A stretch of 64,000 nt of DNA, from contig CAYYRJ010000012.1 in NCBI GenBank assembly GCA_964474085.1, forward strand, positions 7,701 through 71,700, given 5' to 3'. Origin of the DNA: an uncultured Planctomycetales bacterium (GTDB taxonomy: Bacteria; Omnitrophota; Gorgyraeia; Zapsychrales; JANLHA01). The position numbers and the translations under genes were made by a program. The stretch's first letter is position 1; each line of letters starts with the position of its first letter. The notes below the pieces were generated by a model. It was not told where the DNA came from. It saw only the letters and a program-made list of their open reading frames with translations, and searched no databases. Below are positions 14,031-30,948 of this stretch, one piece after another.

Positions 14031-15554
14031 TCAATTGCCGGTATGGCAATCGGTACAATTCATTTGTTTCCAGGATTCATCATCATTAAATGGGTGTTTA
14101 AACTCAAGCCCGTCGGCGTTTTTTTCCGTTTTACCAGCAGGGCCCTGTTCGATAATTGTATGACAGGCTTTGCAGTCTCGTGAAATCACGTGACCTTGCG
14201 ACGACTTATGCTCGCCATCGTGACAGCGAAAACACCCCGGCGAACTCCAATGGCCAATGTTCTCAGGATACACATCCCAACGGGCTTTCATTTCAGGGAA
14301 AAAATTATTTTTGAAAATATGCGTTAAAACCTGCGCCGCAGTCTTAATCTGGGTTTGATGAGCTTTGGCATATTCCGGAAATTTCCATTCATAATATTTT
14401 TGCAGCAAATCCGGAATTTCAGCCAGCGCTTGCGCTTGATTCTCATATTTCCCTGAAAGCAATTCCATACCCTTAGCCTTGATATTAGGAATCGTAAGGT
14501 CGATCTGTTCTTTGGCCAAAGCTTCATTCATCAAATCGTTGGGCGAACGAAAATGGTGAGACGGACGGTTATGGCAATCCATACAGTCCATCTTGCGGAT
14601 CTTTTCCGGGGGTGGCATAACATTTTTGTAAGGCGATTTTTCGGACGTAAAAATCATTTCCTTGCCCGTTTTATCTATGCTCTTAACCCACGAAATGGAT
14701 TGACGCTTCTGATCATCCGCCACATAATAAACTTCATTATCTTTATACATGTGCGCGTGAATGCCGGCGTTCTCGCCTTCCTTGGCCCCAACGGAAACAA
14801 GCATGCGGATATACCAACTTTTATCCTTGCTTTTATCTGACGGGAAATACGTTTTGCGAAGTTCAAAAGAACTAAAGTGTTTGCCCGGCCAATGGCACTG
14901 TTCGCATGTTTCCTTTGCCGGTCGCAAATTTTTGACAGGTGTTGGGATCGGGCGCTGATAATTCTTTTGAAGCGTCGAAAGAACCATCCGGGCACCTGCG
15001 ACCTTATAGCGAACATACCAATCCGCACCAGCGCCAATATGACATTCCACGCATTTGACTTTTGCATGTGGAGATTGAACATACATTGTATGCTCAGGGC
15101 CCATAATCTTATGGCAAACCTTACCGCAAAACTCCACCGATTCCGTATAATGAAACGCCTTGTATGACCCGATCGCCGTCATAAAAAGCAATACGAGCGT
15201 TCCTGTTGTAAAGACAAACAGCGCATTGCGATGTTCAGGCTTGGTTGGGTCCAAATAATAAATTTTGGGAGTGAGCGTTGCTTTTCCTTGCTCAACATCT
15301 TTGCGTTTACGATATGCCCCGTAAGCAATAAGGATAAGCCCCAGGATCAAAAAAGGAGGAAGCAAAATGTACGTATACATCCCCAAATACGGGCTCTGAT
15401 GCACCGCAAAGAAATCGATGCTAAACAAGAAACTTTCAATAATAAAAATAAAAAGCGCCAATAAAATACCCGCATACGTAATCGGATTATAAAAATAAGC
15501 CGAAAACTTATGTTTAAATCTACTGGAGGATTTATTGTCGCTTTTCTTTTTCAT
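14031..15554 (-). CDS. Inner-membrane heptaheme c-type cytochrome, NapC/NirT-like with two N-terminal TM helices (ImcH-like quinol dehydrogenase)
   Basis: Seven CxxCH motifs (CGKVCH, CVECH, CEQCH, CMDCH, CFRCH, CKACH, CTDCH); two hydrophobic helices within residues 20-80. Confidence 0.75.
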   Translation of the reverse strand: MKKKSDNKSSSRFKHKFSAYFYNPITYAGILLALFIFIIESFLFSIDFFAVHQSPYLGMYTYILLPPFLILGLILIAYGAYRKRKDVEQGKATLTPKIYYLDPTKPEHRNALFVFTTGTLVLLFMTAIGSYKAFHYTESVEFCGKVCHKIMGPEHTMYVQSPHAKVKCVECHIGAGADWYVRYKVAGARMVLSTLQKNYQRPIPTPVKNLRPAKETCEQCHWPGKHFSSFELRKTYFPSDKSKDKSWYIRMLVSVGAKEGENAGIHAHMYKDNEVYYVADDQKRQSISWVKSIDKTGKEMIFTSEKSPYKNVMPPPEKIRKMDCMDCHNRPSHHFRSPNDLMNEALAKEQIDLTIPNIKAKGMELLSGKYENQAQALAEIPDLLQKYYEWKFPEYAKAHQTQIKTAAQVLTHIFKNNFFPEMKARWDVYPENIGHWSSPGCFRCHDGEHKSSQGHVISRDCKACHTIIEQGPAGKTEKNADGLEFKHPFNDDESWKQMNCTDCHTGN

Positions 15555-15562
15555 AATAGAAA

Positions 15563-15600
15563 CAATAGGCTGATACCTTATTAAAGATACCAGCCTATTG
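15563..15600 (-). other. Stem-loop (10-bp stem, 18-nt loop) 11 nt upstream of the ImcH-like start codon
   Basis: caataggctg ... cagcctattg is a perfect inverted repeat; the gene downstream of it has no recognisable RBS. Confidence 0.35.
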
Positions 15601-15628
15601 TATTTAACTCAATGAAATAATCGAACAC

Positions 15629-17695
15629 TTACATCCAGTTTAAATTAACGCCCAACCAAACCTCATGCGCACGATATCCGCCGCCTAATTCGGTTTTTGG
15701 ATTTTCCTGATAGCTGTAATAGCTATATTTGGGCTCAATCGTCACTGTCTTATTCGCCGCCCACTTTAATCCGACGGAAACATCATACCAGCTCGAATCA
15801 ATCCCATAAGGAAGCCCAATAGCGGTAAAATCATCAAAATTGTCCTGCGAGGCTTTGCTAAAAACCGAATTAAGACTCATCTTCGGACTGAAGATATAGC
15901 TAGCACTCATGGACCATGTATTAACATTTGATGTAAATGCCGGAATTCTTGGTACGGCACTTCTTATTGCCGGCGTAGTCGTATTAACCAATTGACGCAT
16001 ATAGCCAAGGTCTAATAATAAACTATCCACCGGCTGAAACATAAGATCATACGTAAACGTATGCGATAACGTCAAAGCCCGTTGATTATAAGAGCCTTCC
16101 GTTCGAGCAACATAGGCATTGTCCGCATACTGATAACGCATTGAACCGGTTACTTTTTTAAGAGGCTTGACCGTCCATTTGGTCGCAACTTCTGTTCCGC
16201 CAACTTGCATAAACTCCATGAATGCGGACTTGGCAGCTGAAGAAGTCGCAGGGGTCTCCTGTTCATCATCATAATCGTTATCTACCGTCTTATGACGAAT
16301 TTGCGTCGTAAAATTAAGATATTTTGAAAGAACAGTCCGCGTTCCGGCTGTCAAAACAATCCTGTTGGTATAAATATTAGTTTCACGAAAGAATATTTCA
16401 CCCGCAGAAGCAATAGATTCACCCGCAAGGCTGTTACGATTTTCATACAACCAATTATTGATGCGACCGTATTCGACATCTCCATAAATACTGGTCTTTT
16501 TGAACCCCGAATAACGCAACCCCAAGTCCCCGCCTAAGCTGTCAATTTTGTTTTCATTCATACTAACTTCTGTCGTGTTAGCAATATTGTTGGGAGGATC
16601 TGTTCTGTCGGCTGGATCCACTGACCCGCCGCGACGACTAATAATTTCGGTCTTTACTTTTGCATTAAAAAGCAAATCCTTCGTCAATTGACTTTGGAAA
16701 TTACCTGTCACAATATTTGAACTGTATTTATTATCACCAACCCCGGCATACTTATTTTCAGCGCTGCTCGAAAGGGAACGTGGATTATTAAACTCATCTG
16801 TTTCCTTTATCGTAGCATGCTCTTTATTGTCAATTTTGGTATAACGATACGCCAAGGCAAGCATCCCCGTGTCCTGCCAAAACCATTTTTCGCCATTTAA
16901 CGTTGTAATAGACGAATTTGAGTCCAGCTCGATGGTTTGGCGACGCATCTTTTTGTCCGAAGCAGCACTCGTGGTAGAAAGAGATTTTTCGAGCCTGACG
17001 GTCCGTTCATTTAAAACATCCCACTTTTGCTCGCCTTTGACATTAAAGCCAGCAAACTCACCTTTGGAGCGCAAACCATAGCTATCAAATTTTTCATCAA
17101 CATCCTGCCAAGATGGGCTGATATTCTTTGTCAAACTTCCTACTTTAGCAGGCGTCCAAGTTAAACGCGACTTGGTGCCGTCTTTGCTATGATGGTTATA
17201 AAAAAAGCTGCTCTCTGGCAAATTCCCCAAAGTCTCTCCGATTTCAAAACCAATATGACCGATATCCATTTTATAATCTTTATCTGCATTTACCCCAGAT
17301 AACGTCGCAAACGGATAATACGTTCCACCGGTTCCATCGTAGTATTTACGAAACGTATTGTAATCGAGCTTAAAAAACCCTAACTTTTCTTTTGTAACTT
17401 CAAGATCGCCCCCAAAATCAAAATTGTTGGGAATCGCATGGCCTTCAAACGTGAAGTCTGTGTCTTTATTGATCTTACCGCTGGCGCTTAAATCTTGCAG
17501 CCCCCCGGAATAGCCGTCATTTTTCCAGTATTGTGACCGAAACTTTTCGGCATCACCCTTAACCGAAATATAATCAACCGGAACAACCGTGACAGATACA
17601 TGAGACTCCTCTGCAGCGACTGGGCCCAAAGAAGCTAAACCCGCCCCGCAAAGCGCGATTGCCCCCGCAATAACTTTTATAAAATTGGTTTTCAT
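15629..17695 (-). CDS. Large outer-membrane beta-barrel protein (porin-like sheath, analogous to MtrB/PioB)
   Basis: Signal peptide MKTNFIKVIAGAIALCGAGLASLGPVAAEE; about 690 aa rich in Y/G/N/S/T with an alternating pattern and an aromatic C-terminus; sits between two multiheme cytochrome genes. Confidence 0.65.
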   Translation of the reverse strand: MKTNFIKVIAGAIALCGAGLASLGPVAAEESHVSVTVVPVDYISVKGDAEKFRSQYWKNDGYSGGLQDLSASGKINKDTDFTFEGHAIPNNFDFGGDLEVTKEKLGFFKLDYNTFRKYYDGTGGTYYPFATLSGVNADKDYKMDIGHIGFEIGETLGNLPESSFFYNHHSKDGTKSRLTWTPAKVGSLTKNISPSWQDVDEKFDSYGLRSKGEFAGFNVKGEQKWDVLNERTVRLEKSLSTTSAASDKKMRRQTIELDSNSSITTLNGEKWFWQDTGMLALAYRYTKIDNKEHATIKETDEFNNPRSLSSSAENKYAGVGDNKYSSNIVTGNFQSQLTKDLLFNAKVKTEIISRRGGSVDPADRTDPPNNIANTTEVSMNENKIDSLGGDLGLRYSGFKKTSIYGDVEYGRINNWLYENRNSLAGESIASAGEIFFRETNIYTNRIVLTAGTRTVLSKYLNFTTQIRHKTVDNDYDDEQETPATSSAAKSAFMEFMQVGGTEVATKWTVKPLKKVTGSMRYQYADNAYVARTEGSYNQRALTLSHTFTYDLMFQPVDSLLLDLGYMRQLVNTTTPAIRSAVPRIPAFTSNVNTWSMSASYIFSPKMSLNSVFSKASQDNFDDFTAIGLPYGIDSSWYDVSVGLKWAANKTVTIEPKYSYYSYQENPKTELGGGYRAHEVWLGVNLNWM

Positions 17696-17713
17696 CCAAC
17701 ACCTCCTCATAAA

Positions 17714-18508
17714 TTAATATCGCAAATGATCATCAAAGTTCGAACCATGTACCGCCGTATGACAGCCTCCACTAAAACACGATCCTTGCGCAAGTCGAGT
17801 ATTATGCCCTGTGTTTTTTCCGATCGTCGGGAAGTTGGCCTGCGTATGACAACGCAAACACAAATTATTATCCCGCTGTACAAGCATTTTATCGTTGACC
17901 GAACCATGCACCTGATGGCAGGTCACGCAACCATCACGTAACGCTTCATGTTCAAAAACAAACGGGCCCTGCTTGCCTTGATGACATTTAAAACAAGTGT
18001 CATTGATATCCTCTAGAGCTGTCGAAGTTCCGGGTTTAACCTCTGTGCCGTGCGGATTATGGCAATCGGAACACGACATTCTGCCTTCAATAACAGGATG
18101 TTTATAAGGAAGTCTAAACTGCACTTTTTTGTCCGTATGGCATTTAAAACACGCGCTGGGGTCATTGCGAAGGCTGGCAATATTGCCTTTGCCGCCGCCA
18201 GCTTCTGCGTGAACGCTCCCCGGGCCATGGCACATTTCGCAACCATTGGCAATCCCTTCCAAACCTTCATCGCTTTCAATAGCAATCTTGCGATGCGTTG
18301 AAACTTTAAATTCTCTCGTCTCCTTCTCGTGACAGCTCGCACAGGTTTCGGTACCGACATAGGTCGCATTTTTAAAATTCTCCGCCTTGCCTGTTTCTTC
18401 TGCAGCAGCAGAAAAACAAAACAGGGCCGCGCCGCAAAACGCGAAAACACAAGCCATCACCCAGCGGCCGACGAAGACTCGGGCACAATTTGAGTCTTTG
18501 CTCTGCAT
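17714..18508 (-). CDS. Periplasmic multiheme (about 8-heme) c-type cytochrome
   Basis: Seven CxxCH motifs plus one CX4CH motif (CFSGGCH) in about 260 aa; N-terminal anchor or signal sequence; strong AAGGGGGAA RBS before the ATG at 18508. Confidence 0.8.
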   Translation of the reverse strand: MQSKDSNCARVFVGRWVMACVFAFCGAALFCFSAAAEETGKAENFKNATYVGTETCASCHEKETREFKVSTHRKIAIESDEGLEGIANGCEMCHGPGSVHAEAGGGKGNIASLRNDPSACFKCHTDKKVQFRLPYKHPVIEGRMSCSDCHNPHGTEVKPGTSTALEDINDTCFKCHQGKQGPFVFEHEALRDGCVTCHQVHGSVNDKMLVQRDNNLCLRCHTQANFPTIGKNTGHNTRLAQGSCFSGGCHTAVHGSNFDDHLRY

Positions 18509-18568
18509 ATTTTCCCCCTTGGTTTTGAAAGAAATCAATTGTTGTAAATTTAAGACGTTCATGTAGTT

Positions 18569-18847
18569 TTATTTTTTCTGGGAATCTTCAATAGAACCGG
18601 CTTTTTTATATTCTTCGGCCGTCGGCTTATCCGCGAGCGCCGTAACTTTCTTTCCATAATCATTAAGTTCATGATCGCCGTCTTTTTTGGGTAAGGCAGC
18701 GCTATGACAATCAATGCATTTGGGCTTGCCGTCTGGATAGGCTTCCTTGTAAACCTTCATCTGTCCAAGATCTGCGCGGCTAACGCTTGAAAAACCAAGA
18801 ACAAAAAAGGCAGCGAACATGAGGGTTGATAAAGTGTTTTTTTTCAT
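18569..18847 (-). CDS. Small monoheme cytochrome c (secreted)
   Basis: Signal peptide plus a single CIDCH motif in 92 aa. Confidence 0.65.
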   Translation of the reverse strand: MKKNTLSTLMFAAFFVLGFSSVSRADLGQMKVYKEAYPDGKPKCIDCHSAALPKKDGDHELNDYGKKVTALADKPTAEEYKKAGSIEDSQKK

Positions 18848-18895
18848 TTTGTCTCCTTCTCTATTATGTGGATCATTAAAAAAACATGTTATGGC

Positions 18896-19990
18896 TTACG
18901 CTAAAACTTTTTGCGCCAAACGCGCTTTGGCGATGCGGGCAAAATATTCCTGCTCTTTTTTTTCAATAATGCGTTCAACGGCAACAACCGCATCTTGCCG
19001 GCGACGCACACTGCTTTCAACAACTTGATCAAGCTGGTCAATCGTCAAAAGTTCAACACCTTCGACTAAGGCGACCTTTGGTTCAATATTGCGCGGCATT
19101 GAGATATCAATCAAAATCAGCGGCCGTCTTTTGCGACTAGCCATGACCTCAACAACCATCTCGGACTCGATCAAGTAATGCGGCGCTCCCGCCGAACAAA
19201 TACAGGCATCCACTTTCAACAAAATTTCTTTCATTTGCCAAAAACCCGCTGCAATCCCTTGAACTTCAGAGGCAACCGACTCAGCCTTATCACATGTGCG
19301 ATTCATCAAATAAATATCCCCGACATTTTTGTTACGCAATTGCTCGGCAGCCAAGTGCCCCATTTTGCCAGCGCCTATAACCAAAACAGATTTTCCATTC
19401 AAAGTGCCAAGCTTTTGCTGAATCGTCGTAATCGCAGCCCAGCTGATGGAAGAACCCCCAAACCCGACTTCGGTTTCGGTCTGTGCCTTTTTGCCGGCGC
19501 GAATCGCTAAATTAGAGAGAATATTAAGTTCGCGGGTCATCATGCCGCGAGCGCGCGAAATTTCTGCGGCTTCTTTGACTTGTCCCAAAATTTGTTTTTC
19601 CCCCAAAACCAAAGAATCTAATCCGCAGGCAACACGTAAAGAGTGTCGCACCGCTTGATCAGCTTTGTAGCAATAAAAGTTTTGCAATAACTCGGGGCTG
19701 GTTTTTATTTTTTTGACTTTAAAAAGGGCGTCTAGAATAATTTGCGGGGCATCGTTTAACAAATGCGCATAAATTTCAGTACGATTACACGTCGAGAGGA
19801 TAAAGGCGCCCAAAACAGCAGGATCATTTCGAAGGTCGCTTAATAAAAGTTCTTTTTCAATCTCTTTAAAAAAGAATTTTTCGCGCAGTTCGATGGCTGT
19901 ATTTTTGTGATTTAAACCGATGGAAAAAATATGGTCAGAGCCAGCAGAAAAAACCATTTCTGAGCAATGGCAATCTTTTTCATTTTGCAT
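18896..19990 (-). CDS. hemA: Glutamyl-tRNA reductase
   Basis: IGLNHKNTAIELREKF and TCNRTEIY motifs with an NADPH Rossmann motif (VIGAGKMG); the long ORF N-terminal extension upstream of MQNEKD/MVFSAG is judged spurious, and the exact start is uncertain. Confidence 0.8.
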   Translation of the reverse strand: MQNEKDCHCSEMVFSAGSDHIFSIGLNHKNTAIELREKFFFKEIEKELLLSDLRNDPAVLGAFILSTCNRTEIYAHLLNDAPQIILDALFKVKKIKTSPELLQNFYCYKADQAVRHSLRVACGLDSLVLGEKQILGQVKEAAEISRARGMMTRELNILSNLAIRAGKKAQTETEVGFGGSSISWAAITTIQQKLGTLNGKSVLVIGAGKMGHLAAEQLRNKNVGDIYLMNRTCDKAESVASEVQGIAAGFWQMKEILLKVDACICSAGAPHYLIESEMVVEVMASRKRRPLILIDISMPRNIEPKVALVEGVELLTIDQLDQVVESSVRRRQDAVVAVERIIEKKEQEYFARIAKARLAQKVLA

Positions 19991-20048
19991 GTATAGATAG
20001 TAATCAAAGAGACAAAAGCTTGCAACAAAGTTTTCATAAATTTTTACT

Positions 20049-21350
20049 TCAAATTTTTGTGTTGTTCGGGCGCGAATAAACAGCCTGCACAACACTGATG
20101 TTGCGGGTCTTAAAAGCCGACTGACAATACGACCAATAATAATTCCACTTGCGGACAAACGCTTCATCAAATCCCAAGGCGGCAATCTGGGGTCTTTGGG
20201 CATTAAAATTTTCCCGCCACATCGCCAAGGTGCGCACATAATGCGGCGTGATATCCTCATAATCAAACAAACACAAAGAGCCGGTGCGATTAAGCGCCTG
20301 CGTAATCCGGCTTAACGACGGCAAGAGACTTCCCGGAAAAATGTGTTTCTGTATCCAGTCAACATTCTTGCGAAAACTTTCGTAACGATGATCCGGCGAA
20401 AGAATCATCTGCAAGCCCAAAAGCCCGTCTTTGGCCAGCAGATTATGGCATTGCCCAAAAAACGTTTCTAAAAATTTATCGCCAACAGCTTCAATCATTT
20501 CTATCGAAACAATTTTATCGAACTTTCCTTCCATCAAGCGATAGTCCAAAAATTTAACCTCGCATTGTTTGTTAAGTCCTTCTTCAAAAAAACGCCGCGT
20601 CGCATAATCAAACTGCTCGCGCGAAACGGTCAATGTCGTCAGCTGACAGCCATAATTTTTGGCCGCATGAATCGCAAAGCCGCCCCAGCCGCCGCCTATT
20701 TCCAACACTTTATCCGAACTCTTTAAACGCAGCTTTTGACAAAGCTCGTCGTATTTTTGCGTTTGTGCTTCGCTTAAGCCTTGGTCGGGAGATTTGAAAT
20801 ATGCACTCGAATAAGTCATCGTGGGGTCAAGAAACAGCTTGAAAAACTCATTGCCCAAATCATAGTGAGCCGCAATATTTTTACGACTGCCATAAATGGT
20901 ATTGGCGCGCACAAAATGTTTAACGACATTTAAAATCCCAAGCCAGTTGACGAGTGTAAACTTTTTTTGGTCGGCCATCAAGGTCGGGTGATTTTCGACA
21001 TTGCGAATCATCCATTCAATAACGCGAGTGATGTCCGTCGTGTCCCAATCCCCGTCGACATAGGATTCACCAAAACCGACATCACCGGACCAGAAACACT
21101 TTTTAAACAAAGCCGGTCGACGCACGCGGATATCCGCCGTTACTCCCTGTTGTCCGTCGCCATAAATATATTCTCGCCCATCCGGCAAAGTGACAGTCAG
21201 TCGACCCTCGCGCATCGGTTTAAAAATTGCATCGAAAATAAATTCATAAAAATTTCTTCGCGACGGTAATTTTACAGGATTTAACACATCAATTTTTGGC
21301 CCAGGCACGTAAGACCTCCTTTTGCAAATGCGGATTTTCTTCTTTAGCAT
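20049..21350 (-). CDS. Cyclopropane-fatty-acyl-phospholipid synthase family SAM-dependent methyltransferase (UfaM-like)
   Basis: VLEIGGGWGGFA SAM motif and the CFA-synthase C-terminal region; the start may instead be at the internal MREGRLTV. Confidence 0.85.
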   Translation of the reverse strand: MLKKKIRICKRRSYVPGPKIDVLNPVKLPSRRNFYEFIFDAIFKPMREGRLTVTLPDGREYIYGDGQQGVTADIRVRRPALFKKCFWSGDVGFGESYVDGDWDTTDITRVIEWMIRNVENHPTLMADQKKFTLVNWLGILNVVKHFVRANTIYGSRKNIAAHYDLGNEFFKLFLDPTMTYSSAYFKSPDQGLSEAQTQKYDELCQKLRLKSSDKVLEIGGGWGGFAIHAAKNYGCQLTTLTVSREQFDYATRRFFEEGLNKQCEVKFLDYRLMEGKFDKIVSIEMIEAVGDKFLETFFGQCHNLLAKDGLLGLQMILSPDHRYESFRKNVDWIQKHIFPGSLLPSLSRITQALNRTGSLCLFDYEDITPHYVRTLAMWRENFNAQRPQIAALGFDEAFVRKWNYYWSYCQSAFKTRNISVVQAVYSRPNNTKI

Positions 21351-22068
21351 GAAACGGAATTTTTCTCAAATAAAGCACAAACGCATGAAAATGTATCAAA
21401 AAAATGACCTTCAATGTGACCAAAGGAAAGCATAAAGAAAGCCAGAAAAGATTTTTTTTGTTAAGTTCCTGACGCTCTCCAACTAAGCTGGCATAAAAAA
21501 TTTTCTCTTTGCCATCCATTTCATCGACGTGAATATCCAAACGATCAGCCGGGACTTTAAAATTAAATTCCATCGTCATCTCAAGCGATGAAAACGGGGA
21601 AATATAAAAAAACTTGTCCTGCTGTTCTTTAAAAGTACCAGCAGCAAACGATTCTTTTTTTAAAATATACGGCTTGATTTCGCCGAAAGTATTTCCGATT
21701 TCCGGCACCGAACATAGCGGCTGATCATTTTTATCAAAACAAAAATAAACCGAAAGCGGGTTAAAAACATACCCTAAAGTCCGCAGGTTGGTCAAAATCA
21801 TGATGCGCCCGACTTGATCAACAACGCCTTTCGAGCGCAAAAACTCAACCACATTTTCGCGGACACTCGTCTTTGAAAGCGGCATATGATCTCGATCATA
21901 AAAGCTGTAAGGTCGAAAACGATTATGCCCGAGGATAAAATGCTTTTTGCAAAGCCCGTCGATTTCGTCCAAGTCCAGGTAAAACATAAAAATCTTGTTC
22001 GAAAACCGATTTTTTTTAGGTTTGGTGCGCAGATGGATGACCGTGCAGTTATACAGACAAGAGTTCAT
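21289..22068 (-). CDS. DUF1365 family protein (UfaO-like)
   Basis: 259 aa with a DUF1365-type N-terminus (YNCTVIHLRTKP...MFYLDLDE); 4-nt overlap with the upstream oxidoreductase gene. Confidence 0.75.
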   Translation of the reverse strand: MNSCLYNCTVIHLRTKPKKNRFSNKIFMFYLDLDEIDGLCKKHFILGHNRFRPYSFYDRDHMPLSKTSVRENVVEFLRSKGVVDQVGRIMILTNLRTLGYVFNPLSVYFCFDKNDQPLCSVPEIGNTFGEIKPYILKKESFAAGTFKEQQDKFFYISPFSSLEMTMEFNFKVPADRLDIHVDEMDGKEKIFYASLVGERQELNKKNLFWLSLCFPLVTLKVIFLIHFHAFVLYLRKIPFHAKEENPHLQKEVLRAWAKN

Positions 22069-23333
22069 GCCCAGATATTTTCCCCGCTGATTGCACGCGC
22101 CACATCAAGCCCGGAGCTGAAAGCATCTTCGTGAAAACCATAACGAAAATAACTACCGCAAAAATAAACCGGACCCTGCGCATTAAGTTTTGGCAAATCC
22201 GCTTGGGCACGAATCGCATTGAGACTAAACAAAGGATGCTCATAATCCGTCTGCCAAAGGATTTTGGAAGGGTCCACGTGACCCGGATCATTAAGCGAGA
22301 CAAAATAATCTTTGGCCTTTGAAACTTTTTGCAAACTGTTCATATAATAAATCGTCGTCGGAACTATTCGCCCGTCTTTATCCTTGCACATCCGGTAATT
22401 CCAAGACGACCACACCCGATGATTACGCGGCATGACCGACGCATCCGTATGCAAAATGACATGATTGTGGTTATACACAAATTCTTTAAGCAGCCATTGT
22501 TCCGAGGGAGTTGCCCCATCCCCTAACAATGTTAAAGCTTGATCGGCATGGCAAGCCATAATCACAAAATCATAGCTTTTTCGATCGCCGCGCAAATCAA
22601 AAACGCTTACCTTTCCAAGCTCACGGACAACTTGCGTCGCCATGTTTCCCAACAAAACCTTTCCGCCAAAAAAGGACATCACCCGGTCACGATAAACACG
22701 ACTGCCTCCTAAAGGTGTGCGCCACTGATAATGTCCCCGGAGCCCCAAAAATCCGTGATTTTTAAAAAACCTTACCAATGTCACAATCGGGAATTTGAGC
22801 ATTTTATCCGGCGGAGTTGACCAAACGGCCGAGCTCATCGGGACAAGAAATTTATTTAAAAAATCGTCACCCAGTTTTTTTTCGCGGACATAATCCTCAA
22901 CCGTGTGAAAAGCATATTTTTCGCCATCCAAAACTTCCAAAGCCTCATGGTTAAAACGGTTCATTGCAAAAAGCAGCGCCCAAAAATTTGGGTTCAAAAT
23001 ATTGATCCGCTGCCCAAACAGCCCGTCAATTCCTGTCCCGCAATATTCCAACCCGGACGGACAATGCTGTACACTAAAAGACATCGATGTTGGCATCGTC
23101 GGAATTTCAAGCTCTTTAAAAAAACGCGTCAAATTCGGATACGTGATTTCATTGTAAACCATAAACCCCGTATCCACGTAAATAGGCTGGGAACCCTCTT
23201 TGACCGTCACAGTATTCGTATGCCCGCCGGCATAACTCTCTTTTTCATAAAAAGTAATATCGTATTTGTCTTTCAAAAAATACGCTGCGGACATCGCCGC
23301 AATACCTGTCCCGATGATGGCAACTGTTTTCAT
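22065..23333 (-). CDS. FAD-dependent oxidoreductase, amine-oxidase/phytoene-desaturase-like (UfaD-like fatty acid desaturase candidate)
   Basis: N-terminal dinucleotide motif VAIIGTGIAAMSAAYFL...E; 422 aa. Confidence 0.8.
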   Translation of the reverse strand: MKTVAIIGTGIAAMSAAYFLKDKYDITFYEKESYAGGHTNTVTVKEGSQPIYVDTGFMVYNEITYPNLTRFFKELEIPTMPTSMSFSVQHCPSGLEYCGTGIDGLFGQRINILNPNFWALLFAMNRFNHEALEVLDGEKYAFHTVEDYVREKKLGDDFLNKFLVPMSSAVWSTPPDKMLKFPIVTLVRFFKNHGFLGLRGHYQWRTPLGGSRVYRDRVMSFFGGKVLLGNMATQVVRELGKVSVFDLRGDRKSYDFVIMACHADQALTLLGDGATPSEQWLLKEFVYNHNHVILHTDASVMPRNHRVWSSWNYRMCKDKDGRIVPTTIYYMNSLQKVSKAKDYFVSLNDPGHVDPSKILWQTDYEHPLFSLNAIRAQADLPKLNAQGPVYFCGSYFRYGFHEDAFSSGLDVARAISGENIWA

Positions 23334-23335
23334 TG

Positions 23336-24379
23336 TTAACCTCTTTTTTTAAAAAGATAATGGCTGACAATCCACTCTTTTCCGCTGCGATATCCCCAAA
23401 GCTCGGCGCACGCCATAAAAAACACCCGCCAATAGACCCACCATTTTTTGTGATCTTCAGTATAAACCTCTTTTAAAATCGGAATAATCTTCTCGCGGTT
23501 TTTGTCCATATTGGCAAGCCAACATTCGGACGTTTTTTGATAATGCGTTCCCAAAACCCGCCAATGGTTTTCAATTTTAAAATGATCCTGAAAATACAAC
23601 AGCAAATGATCCGACGGCATAATCCCGCCGGTAAAAAAATATTTAGCGATCCAATCTTTCGAATCTGCCTGGTCATAAAGATACGCGTGTTCTCGATGCG
23701 TAAAAATATGGACAAACAATTTTCCGTCGACTTTCAGAAAAGAAGCGGCCTTGGCCAAGAGTTTTTCGTAGTTGCGCATATGTTCAAACATCTCAACCGA
23801 AACAATGCGATCAAAACGCCGGGGCGTGTCAAAAACATTCATGTCACAGGTGATAATCTCAAGATTTTTAATATTGCGCGCCTTGGCTTGACTGTCGATA
23901 TATTGCTTTTGTGTGCGCGAATTAGAAACGCCGACAAATCGGCTCTCGGGAAACTTGGCGGCCATAAACAAAGATAACGAGCCCCAACCGCAGCCAAATT
24001 CTAAAACATCTTGGCCCGACGCAAGATCAGCCCGCTCAGCGCTTATGGTGAGCATATCTTTTTCAGCCTCAGCCAAATCGACAACCCCATCACGAAAATA
24101 ACATGAACTGTATTTCATATGGGGCCCTAAGACCAGCGAAAAAAATTCCGTCGGGACTTCATAATGCTGTTCATTAGCCTCTGGGGTATTGATCGCAATC
24201 GGGCTGGCTTTAAGTTGATTAATCAGTTTGATAAACCGCGCTTGCCCAAACTCAAGGCCATCCAAATTTTCAGCGACCAACTTTTGCCGTAAAAGTTCGC
24301 GAATCCCAAAACGAATCACAAAGTCCGGCAGTAAATTCTTTTCTAATAATCCTTGCGAAAATGTGACGAGATTAGACAT
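23336..24379 (-). CDS. Second CFA-synthase-like SAM-dependent methyltransferase
   Basis: VLEFGCGWGSLS SAM motif; the start at MSNLVTFSQGLLE fits family N-termini and abuts the DUF1295 stop. Confidence 0.8.
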   Translation of the reverse strand: MSNLVTFSQGLLEKNLLPDFVIRFGIRELLRQKLVAENLDGLEFGQARFIKLINQLKASPIAINTPEANEQHYEVPTEFFSLVLGPHMKYSSCYFRDGVVDLAEAEKDMLTISAERADLASGQDVLEFGCGWGSLSLFMAAKFPESRFVGVSNSRTQKQYIDSQAKARNIKNLEIITCDMNVFDTPRRFDRIVSVEMFEHMRNYEKLLAKAASFLKVDGKLFVHIFTHREHAYLYDQADSKDWIAKYFFTGGIMPSDHLLLYFQDHFKIENHWRVLGTHYQKTSECWLANMDKNREKIIPILKEVYTEDHKKWWVYWRVFFMACAELWGYRSGKEWIVSHYLFKKRG

Positions 24380-25193
24380 TGCGGACCTTTCTTTTGGGTA
24401 ATGGAATAAACAGACTTGTCGATTGTTGGTACCGACGATAATCCTCACCTTTTGAAATCAACGCCTGGGCTTCGGCAAACGGAACACCCGTAACATTCAT
24501 CAAAAGATGGTACATAATGACTGGGCCCAGGAAAGAAATCCAACCCCACGGACTTGCAAGCGCAAAAATAAAATAGCCGACCCACATCAACCATTCAAAA
24601 AAATAATTAGGATGCCGCGAGTAATACCACAAACCCTGATCACAGGTTTTTCCTTTATGTTGCGGATTCGCCTTAAATTGTTTTAATTGTTCGTCAGCGA
24701 TAATCTCGCCTGCCAAGCCGACAATCCAAATCAACACCCCAACGATTTCAATTGGCCAAAGAACCGGTCGCGGATTAATCGCAATCAAAAGAAAAGGAAT
24801 CGCCAAAACAATATCCAAAAGCGCTTCAAATTCAAAAAGCGCCAAAAACTTCAAATTTATATTCCCCCCCCAATCACGGCGAAGCTTCTGGTAACGCTTA
24901 TCTTCACTTTTTTCACGCAAAATCCTGATCGTCAACAAATGACTCAAGCGCAAACCCCAAATCGTGACCATGCCCAAAATCATCGACGAACGTAAAGAAT
25001 ACCCACCGCCTTTTTGAACATACCACCACGTCAAAAGCACCAGCCCCAAAGCCCAACCGATATCAACGACCGCCGCATTTTTTATCAAAACACTTAGTAT
25101 CCAAAAAAGAAATAATAGCGCGGCAACCAGAAGAAAACCTTCTACAACAAGAGGAGTTGGAAATACAAAAGAAGACATAGAGCCATTAAACAC
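24372..25193 (-). CDS. DUF1295 family membrane protein (steroid-5-alpha-reductase/ICMT-like fold)
   Basis: Polytopic 273-aa protein with a conserved C-terminal NYFFEWLMW-type motif. Confidence 0.75.
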   Translation of the reverse strand: MFNGSMSSFVFPTPLVVEGFLLVAALLFLFWILSVLIKNAAVVDIGWALGLVLLTWWYVQKGGGYSLRSSMILGMVTIWGLRLSHLLTIRILREKSEDKRYQKLRRDWGGNINLKFLALFEFEALLDIVLAIPFLLIAINPRPVLWPIEIVGVLIWIVGLAGEIIADEQLKQFKANPQHKGKTCDQGLWYYSRHPNYFFEWLMWVGYFIFALASPWGWISFLGPVIMYHLLMNVTGVPFAEAQALISKGEDYRRYQQSTSLFIPLPKRKVRNV

Positions 25194-25253
25194 GTTGCAG
25201 TCCAGGTGGAATACAGTTACAAAGAAAAAATAACACTTACCGTTAGCTGAAGC

Positions 25254-26102
25254 TTAACTACTTCTAAAATAAGAGGTTAAATTGACATCCCGATTGACAA
25301 GCCCTAATTTGCGGCGGATTTTGTTGCGAATCGTTTCGACAGTTTTAATAGAAATACCCAAATTGGCGCCAATATCTTTGCTGGTTAACCCTGATTTGAC
25401 CAAATTTGCAATCTGCGCTTCGCGAGGCGATAGCCGATGACTTGGCCGCATGACCTGCGAGCCGAAAGCCGAAGTGAGATCTTTCAAGTGCTCTTCAATG
25501 ATACCCAGATATTTTTTTTCATTATTGGTACGCGAGCGCCCTAACCGGCTTAGTGCCGGCAAAACAACATCTTCGACATTATTGCTGACATTTTCTTTGA
25601 TTTTTTTCTTTTCAATTTCAACGAGTTCTAAAATTTCATGCAAAGCGGCATTCTTTTGTTCCAAAATTCTTTTTTGCTCGATAAGTTCGTTTTCGAGCTT
25701 CTTGCGCTGTGTAACATCGCGCTGCACTGAGAGAAAATGCGTTGTTTTTCCGTCGGCATCTTTGATAGGTTCAATATGCCACTCATTGAAAAATTCAGTC
25801 CCATCCTTGCGGTAATTGACCGTGACCGTGCTAAAAATTTCGCCTTTTTCAAGCTTGCGCCGCAAATCGACTAAAACATTTCGGTCGGTCTTATGGCCTT
25901 GCAATATTTTAGGTGTTTCCCCAATCACTTCTTGCGAAGTATAACCGGTCATCCGCACAAAAGCAGGATTAACATAAACAATTTGCGGACCAACCCCAGT
26001 GACATCCGCAGTCGTAATCACAATTGCATCTTGGGCAAAATGAACCGCTGCCGCCAAAAGCGCCGGGTCCACATCATTTTCATTTTTATTATTTGCTGCC
26101 AT
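25254..26102 (-). CDS. PAS-domain LuxR-family transcriptional regulator
   Basis: N-terminal PAS region and a C-terminal LuxR helix-turn-helix (LSPREAQIANLVKSGLTSKDIGANLGISIKTVETIRNKI); AAGGGGGAT RBS before the ATG at 26102. Confidence 0.75.
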   Translation of the reverse strand: MAANNKNENDVDPALLAAAVHFAQDAIVITTADVTGVGPQIVYVNPAFVRMTGYTSQEVIGETPKILQGHKTDRNVLVDLRRKLEKGEIFSTVTVNYRKDGTEFFNEWHIEPIKDADGKTTHFLSVQRDVTQRKKLENELIEQKRILEQKNAALHEILELVEIEKKKIKENVSNNVEDVVLPALSRLGRSRTNNEKKYLGIIEEHLKDLTSAFGSQVMRPSHRLSPREAQIANLVKSGLTSKDIGANLGISIKTVETIRNKIRRKLGLVNRDVNLTSYFRSS

Positions 26103-26236
26103 AAATCCCCCTTGATGAAACATAAAATAGCACAATCTGATTAAATGCGCTTTTATTTTATAACAAATTTTTAAAAAACGTTAATTCTTTATTTGCGATT
26201 GACTTTTGATGTATCGACTGTTATAAAAAACTGCTT

Positions 26237-28414
26237 ATGTCACTGCCGAAACTCTTCTCGAACGATAAAGACAATCAACAACCCCTCTGGGCAGCTTCTC
26301 TCTTGGCTTTCTTGGCCATTATTACTTACACCGTTCTTTTTTTCTCCCTGGTTCCACCAAATATCATGTTGGAACACGAAAAAGACCAATATTTTATTTC
26401 GCTTATTTTCTTACTGGTCATGCTGCTGATTGTCCTGATGACAAAAAGGGCACAACACGAAAACGAACAAGATTTTTATACAACGCAAGAAATATACTTT
26501 GACTTACTTCAACAAGCAGCAGATCCTGTCGTCATCTTAACCGAATTTGGAATGATTCTTTCTGCCAACCAAGCCGTCCAAACGATATCCGGCTATAGTC
26601 CAGACGAACTTACCGGAAAACATTTCTTAAAAATCAATGTGCTTACCGGCAGCGCCATCGCGATTGCCGCCCGCGAATTTTTAAACATCGTCGCCGGAGA
26701 CAAACGCCCCCCCTTTGAACTGACCATGCTCCATAAAAACGGCACACCGTTTATCGTCGAAGCCCATGCTCGCCGCGCAAAAAATGCCAACGGTAAAGTC
26801 ATTATCCATGTCGTCATGCGGGAAATCACCGGCAGAAAGAAGGACGAAGAAATCCTGCGCGAAGAAAGAAATAAAGCCCAAAATTATCTTAATATCGCCG
26901 GGGTTATGCTCTTGACCTTAGACCAAACGGGCAAAATCATCATGATCAACAAAAAAGGGTGCGAAATACTTGGCTACCCCCAAGAAGAAATCCTTGGCAA
27001 GAATTGGTTTAGCGATTTTATTCCGTTTGAAGATTCCGCAAAAATGCAAAATTTCTTTAATGCAACCATTGCAGGCAAAGAACCGCTGCCTCCCACCCAG
27101 GAAAACGTTGTGATCACCAAAAGCGGAGTCAAAAGAATGATTTCCTGGAAAAACACGTTACTTTACGATGGCCCTAAAATTTCAGGAACTTTAAGCTCCG
27201 GGGAAGACATTACTGATAAACAAGCGATTGAGGCCAAACTTCATCTTCAAAGTGCTGCCTTGGAAGCTGCTGCCAATGTGATTGTCATTACTGACAAACA
27301 AGGAAAAATTGTTTGGGCTAATCAGGCGTTTACTCAAATCAGCGGCTTTTCCCGAGAGGAAGCAATTGGACTAAACCCTAAAATGCTCAAATCCGGATTG
27401 CACAATGAACATTTTTATGCCGATTTATGGAACACGATTTTGACCGGAAATATTTGGCACGGTGAAATTGTCAATCGCCGTAAAGACGACCGGCTTTATA
27501 CCGAGGAAATGACAATCACTCCGGTTCGCAATCGTGCTGGACAAATCGATCATTTCATCGCGATCAAACGCGACATCACTGAACGCAAACGATTGCAACA
27601 AAATCTCGAGCAAGCCAATATCGAATTAGCATCCAACACGCGCAAACTCGAGCGCACTTTGCAGGAAATGGACAATAAAAATAAACAATTGCAAGAAGCT
27701 CAAGATCAATTGATCCAAAGCGAAAAATTAGCTGCAGTCGGCGTTTTATCGTCGGGAATTGCCCATGAAATCAAAAATCCACTGGCGATTATCAGCTTAA
27801 GTATCGAAGAATTTGAAGCGATTTCAGATAAACTCGACGACCAAAGCAAAACCTTTATCCAAATGATCAAACGCGCCGCCGAGCGTGCAAACAATGTTAT
27901 TATCGAACTTCTGCGCTTTGCCCGCGTTTCGGATCTGAAAGTCGAACCTGTCAATCTCTTTGATCTGGTCGAAGGAACTTTTGTTCTTATTCGCAACAGC
28001 TCCAAATTCAAAGGCATTGAGCTCAAACATGAATATGACGACAAGCAAGTCACCGTGGAAGGGGACCGCATTCTTTTGGAACAAGTCCTTTTTAATCTTC
28101 TGGTCAATGCGATTGACTCAACGCAAAGAGGCGGAAGTGTCACTATAAAAACGTATCGTTCAGAAAAATTTGAAAAAACCAGCAATAAATCACACGTAAT
28201 CATTGAAGTCATTGATACCGGCAACGGCATTGCGCCAGAGATTTTGCCGCGAATTTTTGAACCCTTTTTTACGACGAAAGAACAAGGCAAGGGAACAGGC
28301 TTAGGCTTAAGCACCGTTTACACTTTGCTCAAACGCCATAACGGCACAATCGATGTTGAAAGTACACTGGACGTGGGGACAAAATTTACAATTACCCTTC
28401 CCTGCGACGGTTAA
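26237..28414 (+). CDS. Multi-PAS sensor histidine kinase
   Basis: N-terminal TM segments, several PAS repeats, HisKA motif (AHEIKNPLAII) and an HATPase G-box (DTGNGI...GTGLGLS). Confidence 0.85.
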   Translation: MSLPKLFSNDKDNQQPLWAASLLAFLAIITYTVLFFSLVPPNIMLEHEKDQYFISLIFLLVMLLIVLMTKRAQHENEQDFYTTQEIYFDLLQQAADPVVILTEFGMILSANQAVQTISGYSPDELTGKHFLKINVLTGSAIAIAAREFLNIVAGDKRPPFELTMLHKNGTPFIVEAHARRAKNANGKVIIHVVMREITGRKKDEEILREERNKAQNYLNIAGVMLLTLDQTGKIIMINKKGCEILGYPQEEILGKNWFSDFIPFEDSAKMQNFFNATIAGKEPLPPTQENVVITKSGVKRMISWKNTLLYDGPKISGTLSSGEDITDKQAIEAKLHLQSAALEAAANVIVITDKQGKIVWANQAFTQISGFSREEAIGLNPKMLKSGLHNEHFYADLWNTILTGNIWHGEIVNRRKDDRLYTEEMTITPVRNRAGQIDHFIAIKRDITERKRLQQNLEQANIELASNTRKLERTLQEMDNKNKQLQEAQDQLIQSEKLAAVGVLSSGIAHEIKNPLAIISLSIEEFEAISDKLDDQSKTFIQMIKRAAERANNVIIELLRFARVSDLKVEPVNLFDLVEGTFVLIRNSSKFKGIELKHEYDDKQVTVEGDRILLEQVLFNLLVNAIDSTQRGGSVTIKTYRSEKFEKTSNKSHVIIEVIDTGNGIAPEILPRIFEPFFTTKEQGKGTGLGLSTVYTLLKRHNGTIDVESTLDVGTKFTITLPCDG

Positions 28415-28444
28415 AACCTTACCTAAAAAAGGCGGAGGATTAAA

Positions 28445-28945
28445 ATGGAAAGAAGAAAGATTGTCGTTGTCGATGATGAAAAAGACTTGGCATTACTTAT
28501 CAAATCTATTTTAGAGGGTACCGGGCTTTACGAAGTTTCGCTCGCCCACGACGGGATTGAAGGCATCAGCCTTGTCAAACAGACATTGCCGGAACTTATC
28601 TTTTTGGATTTTGTCATGCCGAAAGCCGGCGGCGACAAAGTGCTTGCGGCTCTCAAGGCTGATTCGACAACCGCTAAAATTCCGGTCGTTCTAATGAGCG
28701 GCTTAGGCGAGATGATTTACTCCAAAGCCAAAGACCAATGGAAATGGCTGCCCAATAATCCGGCGACAAAAAACCGTGGAGAGTTACCCGACGTCCTCGC
28801 CGACAAAACACAAGCCAGCCATGCGGCTGAAACATTGGGCGTTAAAGATTATTTGCAAAAACCATTTAAAAAAGAAACTTTGATTGAAATCGCCGCCGAA
28901 CTGCTCAAACCAAAAAAAATAGAAGAAAAACCTGAAGAGATTTAA
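28445..28945 (+). CDS. Single-domain response regulator (CheY-like receiver with an internal insertion of about 45 aa)
   Basis: VVDDEKD...D (FLDFVMPK)...K pattern; no output domain. Confidence 0.75.
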   Translation: MERRKIVVVDDEKDLALLIKSILEGTGLYEVSLAHDGIEGISLVKQTLPELIFLDFVMPKAGGDKVLAALKADSTTAKIPVVLMSGLGEMIYSKAKDQWKWLPNNPATKNRGELPDVLADKTQASHAAETLGVKDYLQKPFKKETLIEIAAELLKPKKIEEKPEEI

Positions 28946-29049
28946 GGTCAAGACACTATAAATTTTTCACGCTAATCGGCCGACAAAATCTTCCTCTGTT
29001 TTGCTGACTTGCCCAAAGCTGTTTCTTGAACTTCATGCAATTTTAATTC

Positions 29050-29078
29050 TTGCTTCAAAAAGCTTTTGTTGGTATGCT
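29050..29078 (+). promoter_or_regulatory. Sigma-70-like promoter candidate for pckG (TTGCTT-17 nt-TATGCT)
   Basis: The two hexamers and 17-nt spacing were read directly from the sequence, about 50 nt upstream of the pckG start. Confidence 0.35.
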
Positions 29079-29127
29079 CTACAAATTGCAAAAGCCTATT
29101 AATGCAAAAAAATATATGGAGGAACCA

Positions 29128-30948
29128 ATGAACAGGCCATCAGTCGGCAAAGGCAAGTCCCAAAACCAAAAATTAATCAAATGGGTTGAAGAAGTCGCAG
29201 AACTCACACAGCCAGAACGCATCCACTGGTGCGACGGCAGCCAGGAAGAAACAGACCTCCTTTTAAAGGAAATGGTCGCATCCGGCATGGCAACCAAGCT
29301 CAACGAAAAATTACGCCCCAACAGCTTTTTGTTCCGCTCTGATCCTACCGACGTCGCTCGCATGGAAAACCGCACATTTATTTGTTCGCAAAAGCCCGAA
29401 GACGCAGGCCCCACCAATAACTGGATGGACCCCAAAGCGATGCGCAGCGAACTCAACGGTGTTTTTAAAGGCTCGATGAAAGGCCGCACGATGTACGTCA
29501 TCGCCTTTAGCATGGGGCCGATCGGCTCGCCCATTTCGCACATCGGTGTCGAATTGACTGATTCGCCTTACGTCGTCGTTAATATGCGTATCATGACCCG
29601 CATCGGACAAGCCGTTTTTAATCTGCTCGACAAAGACAACAGTATTTTTGTGCCGTGCATCCACTCTGTCGGTCATCCACTTGAACAAGGCCAAAAAGAT
29701 TCGTCTTGGCCGTGCAACAAAGAAAAAAAATATATCGTCCATTTTCCGGAAACACGCGAAATCTGGTCTTACGGCAGCGGCTACGGCGGAAACGCGCTTT
29801 TGGGCAAAAAATGTTTTGCCCTTCGTATCGCTTCCTGCATGGCACGCGATGAGAATTGGATGGCTGAGCACATGCTTATCTTAGGCGTCGAAGACCCCAA
29901 GGGTGAAAAAACCTATGTTGCAGCGGCTTTCCCCAGCGCCTGCGGCAAAACAAATTTTGCCATGCTTATTCCGCCAAAAAATTTTCGCGATAAGGGATGG
30001 AAAGTTTGGACAGTCGGCGATGATATCGCGTGGATCAAGCCCGGTGCCGACGGAAAACTTTATGCGATTAACCCTGAAGCCGGTTATTTTGGGGTCGCTC
30101 CCGGAACTTCTGAGAAATCAAATCCAAATGCTATTATTTCGTGTTCCAAGAACAGCATTTTTACCAACTGCGCTTTGACGCCCGAGGGGGATGTCTGGTG
30201 GGAAGAAATGACTCCAACCCCGCCAGCTAAAGCCATTGACTGGACCGGACAAGAATGGACGCCCGGCTGCGGACGCTTGGCCGCACACGCTAACGCTCGC
30301 TTTACCGCGCCTGCCTCTCAATGCCCGACGATAGACCCAGCGTGGGAAGATCCTAAAGGTGTGCCGATCAGCGCATTTATTTTTGGCGGCCGACGCGCCA
30401 GCGACGTTCCTTTAGTCTTTCAAGCCTTCAATTGGTCGCACGGGGTTTACTTAGGCGCGACCATGGGTTCAGAAATGACGGCCGCTGCCATCGGCGGCGC
30501 AGGACAACTGCGTATCGACCCGTTTGCTATGATCCCCTTCTGCGGGTATCACATGGGTGCATATTTCCAACACTGGTTAAAAATTGGCAAATTAACAACA
30601 TCTGCTCCTCGTATTTTTCACGTCAACTGGTTTCGCAAAAGCGCTGAAGGCAAATTCCTTTGGCCGGGCTTTGGCGAAAACATGCGTATTTTAAAATGGA
30701 TCGTTGACAGCGCAAACGGCCGTGCCGCTTGCCAAGAAACGCCGCTTGGCTGGGTGCCGCGTTATGAAGACATCGATTGGGAAGGTGTTACGTTCACAAA
30801 AGATCAATGGAATGAAGTTATGCGCATCGATCGAAAGAAATGGAAGGAAGTTTTAACGCTTCAACATGAAGAAAGCTTCCTTAAAATTCATGATCGCCTG
30901 CCCAAAGAACTGATTTGCGAACGCGAACTTTTAATCTCACGACTGTAA
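29128..30948 (+). CDS. pckG: Phosphoenolpyruvate carboxykinase (GTP)
   Basis: GTP-PEPCK motifs ([22 protein letters not shown], kinase-1a region); GGAGG RBS 5 nt before the ATG at 29128. Confidence 0.9.

Follow-up and report, generated by a model that had tools for sequence, protein, structure and literature searches.

In a 64,000-nucleotide stretch of an Omnitrophota genome (GenBank assembly GCA_964474085.1, contig CAYYRJ010000012.1, positions 7,701 to 71,700; hereafter the window, meaning the whole stretch that was analyzed), we found a five-gene operon (20049-25193) that sequence comparisons place as a genuine, well-conserved member of the furan-fatty-acid (FuFA) cluster family, in a phylum where this cluster is unstudied. 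Furan fatty acids are scavengers of radicals and singlet oxygen, and the bacterial pathway that makes them was worked out between 2014 and 2020 in two alphaproteobacteria. We think it probable that the operon remodels the unsaturated acyl chains of existing membrane phospholipids via the FuFA route, with mono- and dimethyl furan fatty acids as its most likely products. The gene set itself is common rather than rare and represents a known kind of cluster; the new part is an EL222-like LOV-LuxR regulator with proline in place of the adduct cysteine, which is encoded directly upstream of the operon in an adjacency that recurs in diverged relatives.

The five operon genes are co-directional and, in the order in which they would be transcribed, are as follows.

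24372..25193, minus strand: DUF1295 membrane protein (Pfam DUF1295, E 1e-67; Steroid_dh, E 3e-9).
23336..24379 (longest open reading frame, ORF, to 24448), minus strand: short CMAS-family S-adenosylmethionine (SAM) methyltransferase, 347 aa (Pfam CMAS, E 2e-44).
22065..23333, minus strand: FAD-dependent amine-oxidase-family protein, 422 aa (Pfam Amino_oxidase/NAD_binding_8, PF01593/PF13450, E 3e-19).
21289..22068, minus strand: DUF1365 protein, 259 aa (PF07103, E 7e-69, full length).
20049..21308 (longest ORF to 21350), minus strand: long two-domain CMAS-family methylase, 419 aa (Pfam CMAS, E 1e-84, plus DUF7884 N-domain).

Pfam searches of the window ORFs bore out the gene order and domain assignments of the first-pass annotation, which had been made from the letters and ORF translations alone. 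Its suggestion of translational coupling stands with respect to the tight packing, although the overlap of about 60 nt that it cited is an artefact of taking the longest ORFs, such that the real overlaps are 8, 4 and 20 nt. For the long methylase the start is GTG 21308, which follows a AAAGGAGG ribosome-binding site and agrees with the gene calls in five relatives, and its 20-nt overlap with the DUF1365 gene is kept in five relatives. The short methylase starts at ATG 24379, giving a product 100% identical to that of the nearest relative, and overlaps the DUF1295 gene by 8 nt; the oxidase and DUF1365 genes overlap by 4 nt, with a gap of 2 nt before the oxidase gene. DUF1295 itself probably starts at ATG 25178 (268 aa). 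A single translationally coupled operon is the best explanation of this arrangement.

The arrangement is not peculiar to this contig. Proteins of the nearest relative (L001, GCA_964400065.1) are 92-100% identical to those of the window, and named homologues at 49-70% identity come nearly all from metagenome-assembled genomes of Candidatus Omnitrophica/Omnitrophota. All six relatives' contexts that we inspected (seven loci: L001, L002/L003, L009, L010, L011 and L015, the near-duplicates L002 and L003 being counted as one context) carry the same five-gene order, which runs counter to the earlier view of the cluster as uncommon in this lineage. Further afield, we surveyed 80 metagenome loci with distant DUF1365 relatives (31-52% identity), and among the 26 that are well flanked all five families occur together in 18. 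Nine of these 18 have the order oxidase, DUF1365, long methylase, DUF1295, short methylase, eight are ordered as in the window and one has another order. On 15 plasmids, DUF1365 and short-methylase genes lie no more than 4 kb apart. A third cluster type occurs in five of the metagenome loci (L065, L066, L070, L075 and L080), where the oxidase and DUF1365 genes are followed directly by a short, coclaurine-N-methyltransferase (CNMT)-like methylase gene without a long methylase, and an ECF-sigma-like gene (extracytoplasmic function) lies divergently upstream in four of the five (not in the short L066).

Natural fusion proteins, sought among 50%-identity representatives of the short-methylase family and confirmed by Pfam, argue strongly and independently that every part works in the same pathway. 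Five of these fuse DUF1295 to the short methylase (P0257, P0258, P0285, P0377 and P0378); two fuse the long and short methylases and two the oxidase with both methylases (P0272, P0278, P0273 and P0287 between them); and one, P0293, holds DUF1365, oxidase, long methylase and short methylase in a single protein of 1840 aa. The large fusion proteins may be eukaryotic.

Experimental work gives these families their likely roles. In Rhodobacter sphaeroides, UfaM (RSP2144) methylates cis-vaccenate, UfaD (RSP1091) desaturates the UfaM product, and UfaO (RSP1090, a DUF1365 protein) uses O2 to build the furan ring (Lemke et al. 2020, PMC7380195). In Rhodopseudomonas palustris, the contiguous genes RPA2571 (ufaD), RPA2570 (ufaO) and RPA2569 (ufaM) are necessary and sufficient, and the dimethyl product is made by a separate methylase, FufM (RPA0924), which is 26% identical to UfaM and alone is enough for dimethylation both in R. 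sphaeroides and in vitro (PMC7380195). The Halomonas methylase whose gene adjoins ufaD and ufaO gives 11-methyloctadec-12-enoate in Escherichia coli, and the stand-alone Halomonas cfa yields cyclopropanes (PMC12089945). We compared the window with this pathway via intermediates, namely alphaproteobacterial plasmid clusters that lie beside sigmaE-ChrR. On plasmids of Azospirillum, Aminobacter and Rhizobium, the homologues linked to sigmaE-ChrR share the oxidase-DUF1365-long methylase order of the window, with identities of 39-43% for the oxidase, 32-36% for DUF1365 and 39% for the long methylase. These identities, together with the validated ufaD-ufaO-ufaM order, support the homology to the FuFA gene cluster proposed in the first-pass annotation. 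The closer equivalence that it drew, to RSP1087-1091 plus ufaM, does not hold, as RSP1087 and RSP1088 have no counterpart in the window and RSP1089, RSP1088 and RSP1087 are dispensable (PMC7380195). Exact-primer scans gave no match among the genome contigs to the 3' end of R. palustris RPA2570 or to the R. sphaeroides RSP1090/RSP1089 junction, nor among the metagenome contigs to the R. palustris RPA0923/RPA0924 junction.

What we show here concerns the anatomy of the genes, the families they belong to, their conserved synteny, the fusion proteins and the signatures at the active sites; from these we infer chemical steps, products and regulation as follows. The long methylase, as a UfaM-type enzyme, would use SAM to convert cis-vaccenate to 11-methyl-12-trans-18:1; the flavoprotein, as a UfaD-type enzyme, would introduce a second trans double bond; and the DUF1365 protein, as a UfaO-type enzyme, would close the furan ring with O2 to give 9M5-FuFA. 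A second methyl group would then be put on the ring by the short CNMT-like methylase, acting as FufM does, to yield 9D5-FuFA, with DUF1295 perhaps working alongside it as a membrane partner or in an additional reduction. Because two of the pathway steps need O2, the operon may act as a (photo-)oxidative membrane defence when a cytochrome-rich, probably anaerobic or microaerophilic bacterium meets oxygen. Its expression would be read through from, or controlled by, the upstream LOV-like regulator (Cys to Pro), replacing the sigmaE-ChrR switch with which Proteobacteria respond to singlet oxygen.

For the flavoprotein (22065..23333) we propose the role of a UfaD-type acyl-chain desaturase. It matches, at 39-43% identity, sigmaE-ChrR-linked FAD oxidoreductases of four alphaproteobacterial plasmids, whose genes immediately precede DUF1365. 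Its scores against carotenoid and protoporphyrinogen oxidase models are 20-29 bits, far under cut-offs of 98-569, and these matches cover only residues 1-95, the N-terminal FAD motif; assignment to the carotenoid desaturases, which the first-pass annotation had named as an outcome that would count against its reading, is thereby disfavored. We likewise propose the DUF1365 protein to be a UfaO-type, O2-dependent, furan-ring-forming enzyme. The protein has no sequence match in the PDB, and its AlphaFold2 model (predicted local distance difference test score, pLDDT, 91), a beta-barrel with C-terminal helices, has no convincing PDB neighbor, showing weak resemblance to nitrobindin and fatty-acid-binding-like barrels (template-modeling score, TM, at most 0.54 on target). 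A structure-based function was dropped, given only this weak likeness to beta-barrel ligand binders. The UfaO step, diene + O2 to furan + H2O, would be balanced without an external reductant, in agreement with the in vitro result (PMC7380195).

These same enzyme families could instead yield other end products, such as methyl-branched conjugated dienes, other oxygenated lipids, or products of 16:1 or other chains, which we regard as unlikely yet deserving serious weight. Identities to the proteobacterial homologues reach only 32-43%, and the mechanism and cofactor of DUF1365 are not established (PMC7380195), with a structural model whose neighbors are uninformative. The unvarying gene order, however, and the occurrence of DUF1365, oxidase and both methylases in a single polypeptide favor one conserved pathway across distant taxa, and all three of the triads tested so far make FuFA intermediates or products, so that we retain the FuFA route as the preferred reading.

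Turning to the two genes transcribed first, we assign the short methylase, with moderate confidence, as a FufM-type furan-ring methylase. The first-pass annotation had called it a second CFA-synthase-like methylase, but its best solved structure is a plant coclaurine N-methyltransferase (6GKV, E 3e-73, end to end), and it matches E. coli Cfa weakly (E 1e-27) and scores 158 bits against an NCBIfam Cfa equivalog whose cut-off is 400. It is 43% identical to the short CMAS-family protein that adjoins DUF1295 in Rhizobium tropici. The Arabidopsis protein LIME1 is itself CNMT-like. FufM is 37.9% identical to LIME1 (PMC10940516), and this relation, the CNMT-like character of the short methylase, a similar identity between the two methylases of each pair (26% for FufM and UfaM, 28.5% for the short and long methylases of the window) and an overlap with the upstream gene together point to the FufM type; fufM overlaps RPA0923 by ATGA, as read from published primers. 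The termini of FufM, known from primers, were found in none of 150 short-methylase family representatives. DUF1295 belongs to a steroid-5-alpha-reductase/ICMT-like superfamily, with a weak match to human SRD5A2 (7BW1), and is 38% identical to the DUF1295 protein of the R. tropici plasmid; it may work with the short methylase, as a membrane partner or in an extra reduction.

An arrangement of two independent modules, in which the triad of oxidase, DUF1365 and long methylase makes a monomethyl FuFA and DUF1295 with the short methylase makes a different lipid, strikes us as improbable. One possibility for that second lipid would be a mid-chain methyl-branched saturated chain, formed via methylenation and then NADPH-dependent reduction by DUF1295. 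This is the logic of tuberculostearate synthesis. The match of DUF1295 to the Steroid_dh reductase family would suit such a scheme, as would the constant adjacency and occasional fusion of DUF1295 and the short methylase, the divergent transcription of this pair from the triad in R. tropici, the presence of the triad without the pair, in the order oxidase-DUF1365-methylase, in 13 of the 80 metagenome loci (many on short contigs), and the ability of FufM to work in vitro without a partner. Yet P0272, P0278, P0273, P0287 and P0293 fuse the short methylase to FuFA-type enzymes without DUF1295, and the joint occurrence of the five families in 18 of 26 loci likewise speaks for the single FuFA pathway that we prefer.

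The long methylase, which we propose to be a UfaM-type cis-vaccenate 11-methyltransferase, shares with E. coli Cfa (6BQC) a two-domain fold and would likewise use SAM and phospholipid acyl chains as substrates, but differs from it in genomic context, being encoded beside ufaD-like and ufaO-like genes. It is 39% identical (275-301 bits) to cluster-linked alphaproteobacterial CMAS proteins and 36% (192 bits) to E. coli Cfa, and against the NCBIfam Cfa equivalogs it scores 283.6 bits (NF008686, cut-off 400) and 288 bits (NF053839, cut-off 600). Aligned to E. coli Cfa, it has S, E, Q, I and Y at C139, E239, H266, I268 and Y317, the bicarbonate-site residues, such that the catalytic E239, I268 and Y317 are kept and C139 and H266 are replaced; in addition, G236 is E and H240 is A. 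The residues E, A and Q at the Cfa positions G236, H240 and H266 recur in 56 of 56 cluster-linked homologues, all encoded next to DUF1365 (the window protein, 52 metagenomic sequences from loci L016-L095, and those of L002, R. tropici and Azospirillum ramasamyi), whereas G, H and H occupy these positions in CmaA1 and in the solved cyclopropane synthases (E. coli, Lactobacillus and Aquifex). With H266, a bicarbonate ligand in Cfa, replaced by Q, a different reaction outcome is plausible. Given these active-site differences from solved enzymes in the alignment, we conclude that an ordinary cyclopropane synthase is not what the long methylase is, contrary to the placement that the first-pass annotation had named as counting against its reading, and E/A/Q versus G/H/H may be a sequence marker that separates UfaM-type from Cfa-type enzymes.

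An ordinary cyclopropane-fatty-acid synthase operon with unrelated neighbors, in which the oxidase would act on carotenoids, squalene or porphyrins, is very hard to credit: the best NCBIfam and PDB names of the long methylase are indeed cyclopropane synthases and hemA does lie 91 nt downstream, but the methylase scores below every Cfa equivalog cut-off, the changes of H266 to Q and of the G/H around the catalytic Glu to E/A are invariant, the oxidase matches the carotenoid and protoporphyrinogen oxidase models over the FAD motif only, and the hemA linkage varies among relatives (L002, L009, L010, L011 and L015).

Upstream of the FuFA-type operon lie the regulator and its neighbors.

25254..26102, minus strand: LOV-like PAS + LuxR/GerE helix-turn-helix (HTH) regulator, 282 aa (Pfam PAS_9/GerE).
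26155..26184, minus strand: sigma-70-like promoter match TTAACG-18-TAAAAT, upstream of the regulator gene.
26237..28414, plus strand: membrane-anchored three-PAS histidine kinase (Pfam 3x PAS, HisKA, HATPase_c).
28445..28945, plus strand: stand-alone receiver protein without a DNA-binding domain, 166 aa (Pfam Response_reg).

The regulator, kinase and receiver genes are present as the first-pass annotation described them, except that the regulator gene does not follow the operon and instead lies upstream of it on the same strand, at a spacing of 60-75 nt; the kinase gene is divergent from it. The start ATG 26102 gives the 282-aa product, identical at 100% to P0135 (282 aa), and the longest ORF begins at TTG 26135. 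The PAS + LuxR architecture assigned earlier stands, and the PAS domain can be specified further as LOV-type without the photoactive cysteine: the top PDB matches are LOV domains, EL222 of Erythrobacter litoralis (N-terminal LOV-type PAS, C-terminal LuxR-type HTH) matches both domains, and the best partial NCBIfam matches are YtvA, LOV-kinase and NifL models. The motif GETPKILQG stands where LOV domains have GRNCRFLQG, which puts a proline at the position of the adduct cysteine. This proline is found in 116 of 121 family members, at least 95% of which retain N94, N104, Q123 and Q66. Relative to EL222-type LOV domains, the window regulator keeps the flavin-contact residues N94, N104 and Q123, whereas N61 is T, R63 is K and F64 is I. 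Around 70 natural LOV-like proteins with the cysteine replaced, by proline among others, have been described, and LOV signaling via flavin reduction is possible without the cysteine (Yee et al. 2015, PMC4682037).

We consider it likely but unproven that this LOV-like LuxR protein regulates the operon. In L002/L003, L009, L013, L015 and L093 the regulator gene immediately precedes the operon or an extended form of it, with regulators that are 54-73% identical. The extended versions (as in L013 and L015) add DUF1475, SnoaL, YceI, lipocalin, chalcone-isomerase-like and epimerase genes, and in L014 only SnoaL, DUF1295 and lipocalin genes stand behind the regulator. No promoter- or terminator-like site was found between the window's regulator gene and the operon. 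On the operon strand a single promoter match, that at 26155..26184, falls in intergenic DNA; it lies in a region conserved in L002, L009 and L012 and is possibly the promoter of a six-gene transcript. An Rfam scan of 18000-29500 revealed no riboswitch or other RNA. In the relatives, a palindrome, CATGTA(T)-N6-7-(A)TACATG, occurs just after the regulator stop codon (L002:6689-6707 and L015:6466-6485; imperfect in L009 and L012-L014), conserved in intergenic DNA that otherwise is not; in L013-L015, GCGTTGA comes about 35 nt after it. The palindrome may serve as operator for the regulator, although its presence in L012, where no operon follows, means that it is not proof of operon control.

The kinase and receiver genes adjoin the regulator gene in L002/L003, L009 and L012 and not in L013-L015. 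Their linkage to the operon is confined to the closest clade, and they are probably unrelated neighbors. The receiver, which shows the conservation pattern of the kinase, is likely its partner; direct signaling from the histidine kinase to the LuxR protein was rejected, as the regulator has no receiver domain. At the junction with the operon, L001:1-78 (the 78 nt between contig start and DUF1295) is unrelated to the window spacer 25179-25253, and a 94% identical regulator (P0136) lies on a separate 9.7-kb NCBI contig, which points to an assembly break or a rearrangement.

Our fullest interpretation is that the cysteine-less LOV-LuxR protein is a dedicated light, O2 or redox switch for a five-enzyme dimethyl-FuFA operon in Omnitrophota, replacing sigmaE-ChrR, with DUF1295 as an unrecognized fifth FuFA component alongside FufM; as a whole we offer it only tentatively. 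In keeping with the first-pass annotation, a scan of roughly 50 window ORFs of at least 90 aa turned up neither an ECF sigma (Sigma70_r2/r4) nor a ChrR-type protein. Several observations weigh against this interpretation, or against the FuFA assignment beneath it. The predicted orthology to the validated UfaM, UfaD, UfaO and FufM is built on synteny, sigmaE-ChrR-linked intermediates and literature statements, and identities to proteobacterial homologues are in the low range given above; DUF1295 has no assigned step, since FufM alone suffices for dimethylation. On the regulatory side, L012 has the regulator, kinase and receiver and no operon, and in L010 and L011 the operon has MarR or OmpR/kinase genes beside it in place of the regulator. 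An ECF-sigma-like gene is the commoner neighbor in the distant metagenome loci (about 12 of 80). The palindrome of the relatives is absent or degenerate in window 25179-25253, which leaves the LuxR binding motif sought upstream of 25193 unsupported, and promoter matches taken together do not exceed the number expected from shuffled sequence.

Around the operon, the window carries hemA, a decahaem MtrA/DmsE-like cytochrome, a NapC/NirT-like cytochrome, ppx, ppk and GTP-PEPCK. We rejected hemA as an operon member given its variable linkage: a crp-family gene intervenes in L002, and hemA is absent after the operon in L009, L010, L011 and L015. Between the regulator gene and ppx/ppk (window 14031-20000), L002, L009 and L012 differ by whole cassettes. 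One such cassette, comprising hemA, a 92-aa ORF, the decahaem cytochrome, a 693-aa protein and the NapC-like cytochrome, is shared by the window and L002 and absent from L009 and L012, and L001 carries it as far as the end of its contig. The gene for the 693-aa protein (15629-17710, minus), which has no Pfam or NCBIfam match, lies directly downstream of that for the decahaem DmsE/MtrA-like cytochrome (17714-18562, minus), a position that suggests a porin partner for extracellular electron transfer. Farther away, 44675-48064 (minus) encodes a fused MFS-acyltransferase-AMP-binding protein with an Aas-like lysophospholipid-recycling architecture, near a MarR gene (49391-49861, minus), and the same fusion occurs at L010:1-1755, a few kb upstream of a run of MarR, DUF1475 and the five-gene operon. 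Tandem paralogues at 56078-57358 and 57678-58931 (both minus) combine a PilZ domain with a FeeM-type N-acyl amino acid synthase domain, a pairing that suggests lipid or amino-acid acylation linked to cyclic di-GMP (c-di-GMP); MBOAT, LolA-like, DUF1302 and YdbH-like genes are nearby. A 1443-aa ORF at 36170-40501 (minus) has no Pfam match at E <= 1e-4.

These findings do not overturn current knowledge, and their weight lies in how they extend it. Three known enzymes, a FufM-type methylase and DUF1295 appear as one widely conserved five-part module, in which DUF1295 is a concrete candidate for a missing component of the FuFA pathway. Coupled to a cysteine-less LOV-LuxR protein, the module offers a natural test case for LOV signaling without the adduct cysteine, and the locus bears on how non-phototrophs sense the need for FuFA-based membrane defence. 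UfaM-type methylases and cyclopropane synthases are also routinely mis-annotated as each other, and the E/A/Q marker may help to tell them apart.

Compared with known systems, the window operon resembles several FuFA clusters in different respects. In R. sphaeroides, the proposed protection of the membrane against oxidative stress is common to both, and RSP1091 and RSP1090 are followed by the 402-aa RSP1089 where the window has its long methylase, a likeness by position only. The short-chain dehydrogenase/reductase RSP1087 and the lipoprotein RSP1088 have no window counterpart; conversely, no DUF1295 or CNMT-type methylase is reported in the RSP1091-1087 operon as described (a comparison by descriptions, not sequence). 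The R. sphaeroides genes belong to a sigmaE-ChrR regulon, whereas no ECF sigma or ChrR gene was found among the scanned ORFs of the 64-kb window. The phrB gene of the proteobacterial regulon has a parallel in the UV-damage endonuclease gene that closes the operon of L015. In Halomonas, the order ufaD-ufaO-ufaM is that of the window triad. R. tropici CIAT 899 carries all five families on pRtrCIAT899a (NC_020060.1, 68.7-74.2 kb), 34-43% identical to those of the window, and likewise has DUF1295 immediately upstream of the short methylase and the order oxidase-DUF1365-long methylase; there the two modules are divergent and stand beside sigmaE-ChrR, TspO, DUF2177 and DUF2147, whereas in the window they are co-linear. 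In R. palustris CGA009, fufM sits at a distant locus, in contrast to the single operon of the window, and the regulator also differs. The two nevertheless share the order FAD oxidase, DUF1365 and CMAS-family methylase, the presence of a second, divergent methylase of the CMAS family with about 26-28% identity to that one, and an overlap of that second gene with what precedes it, fufM with the upstream stop codon (ATGA) and the window's short methylase with DUF1295 (8 nt).

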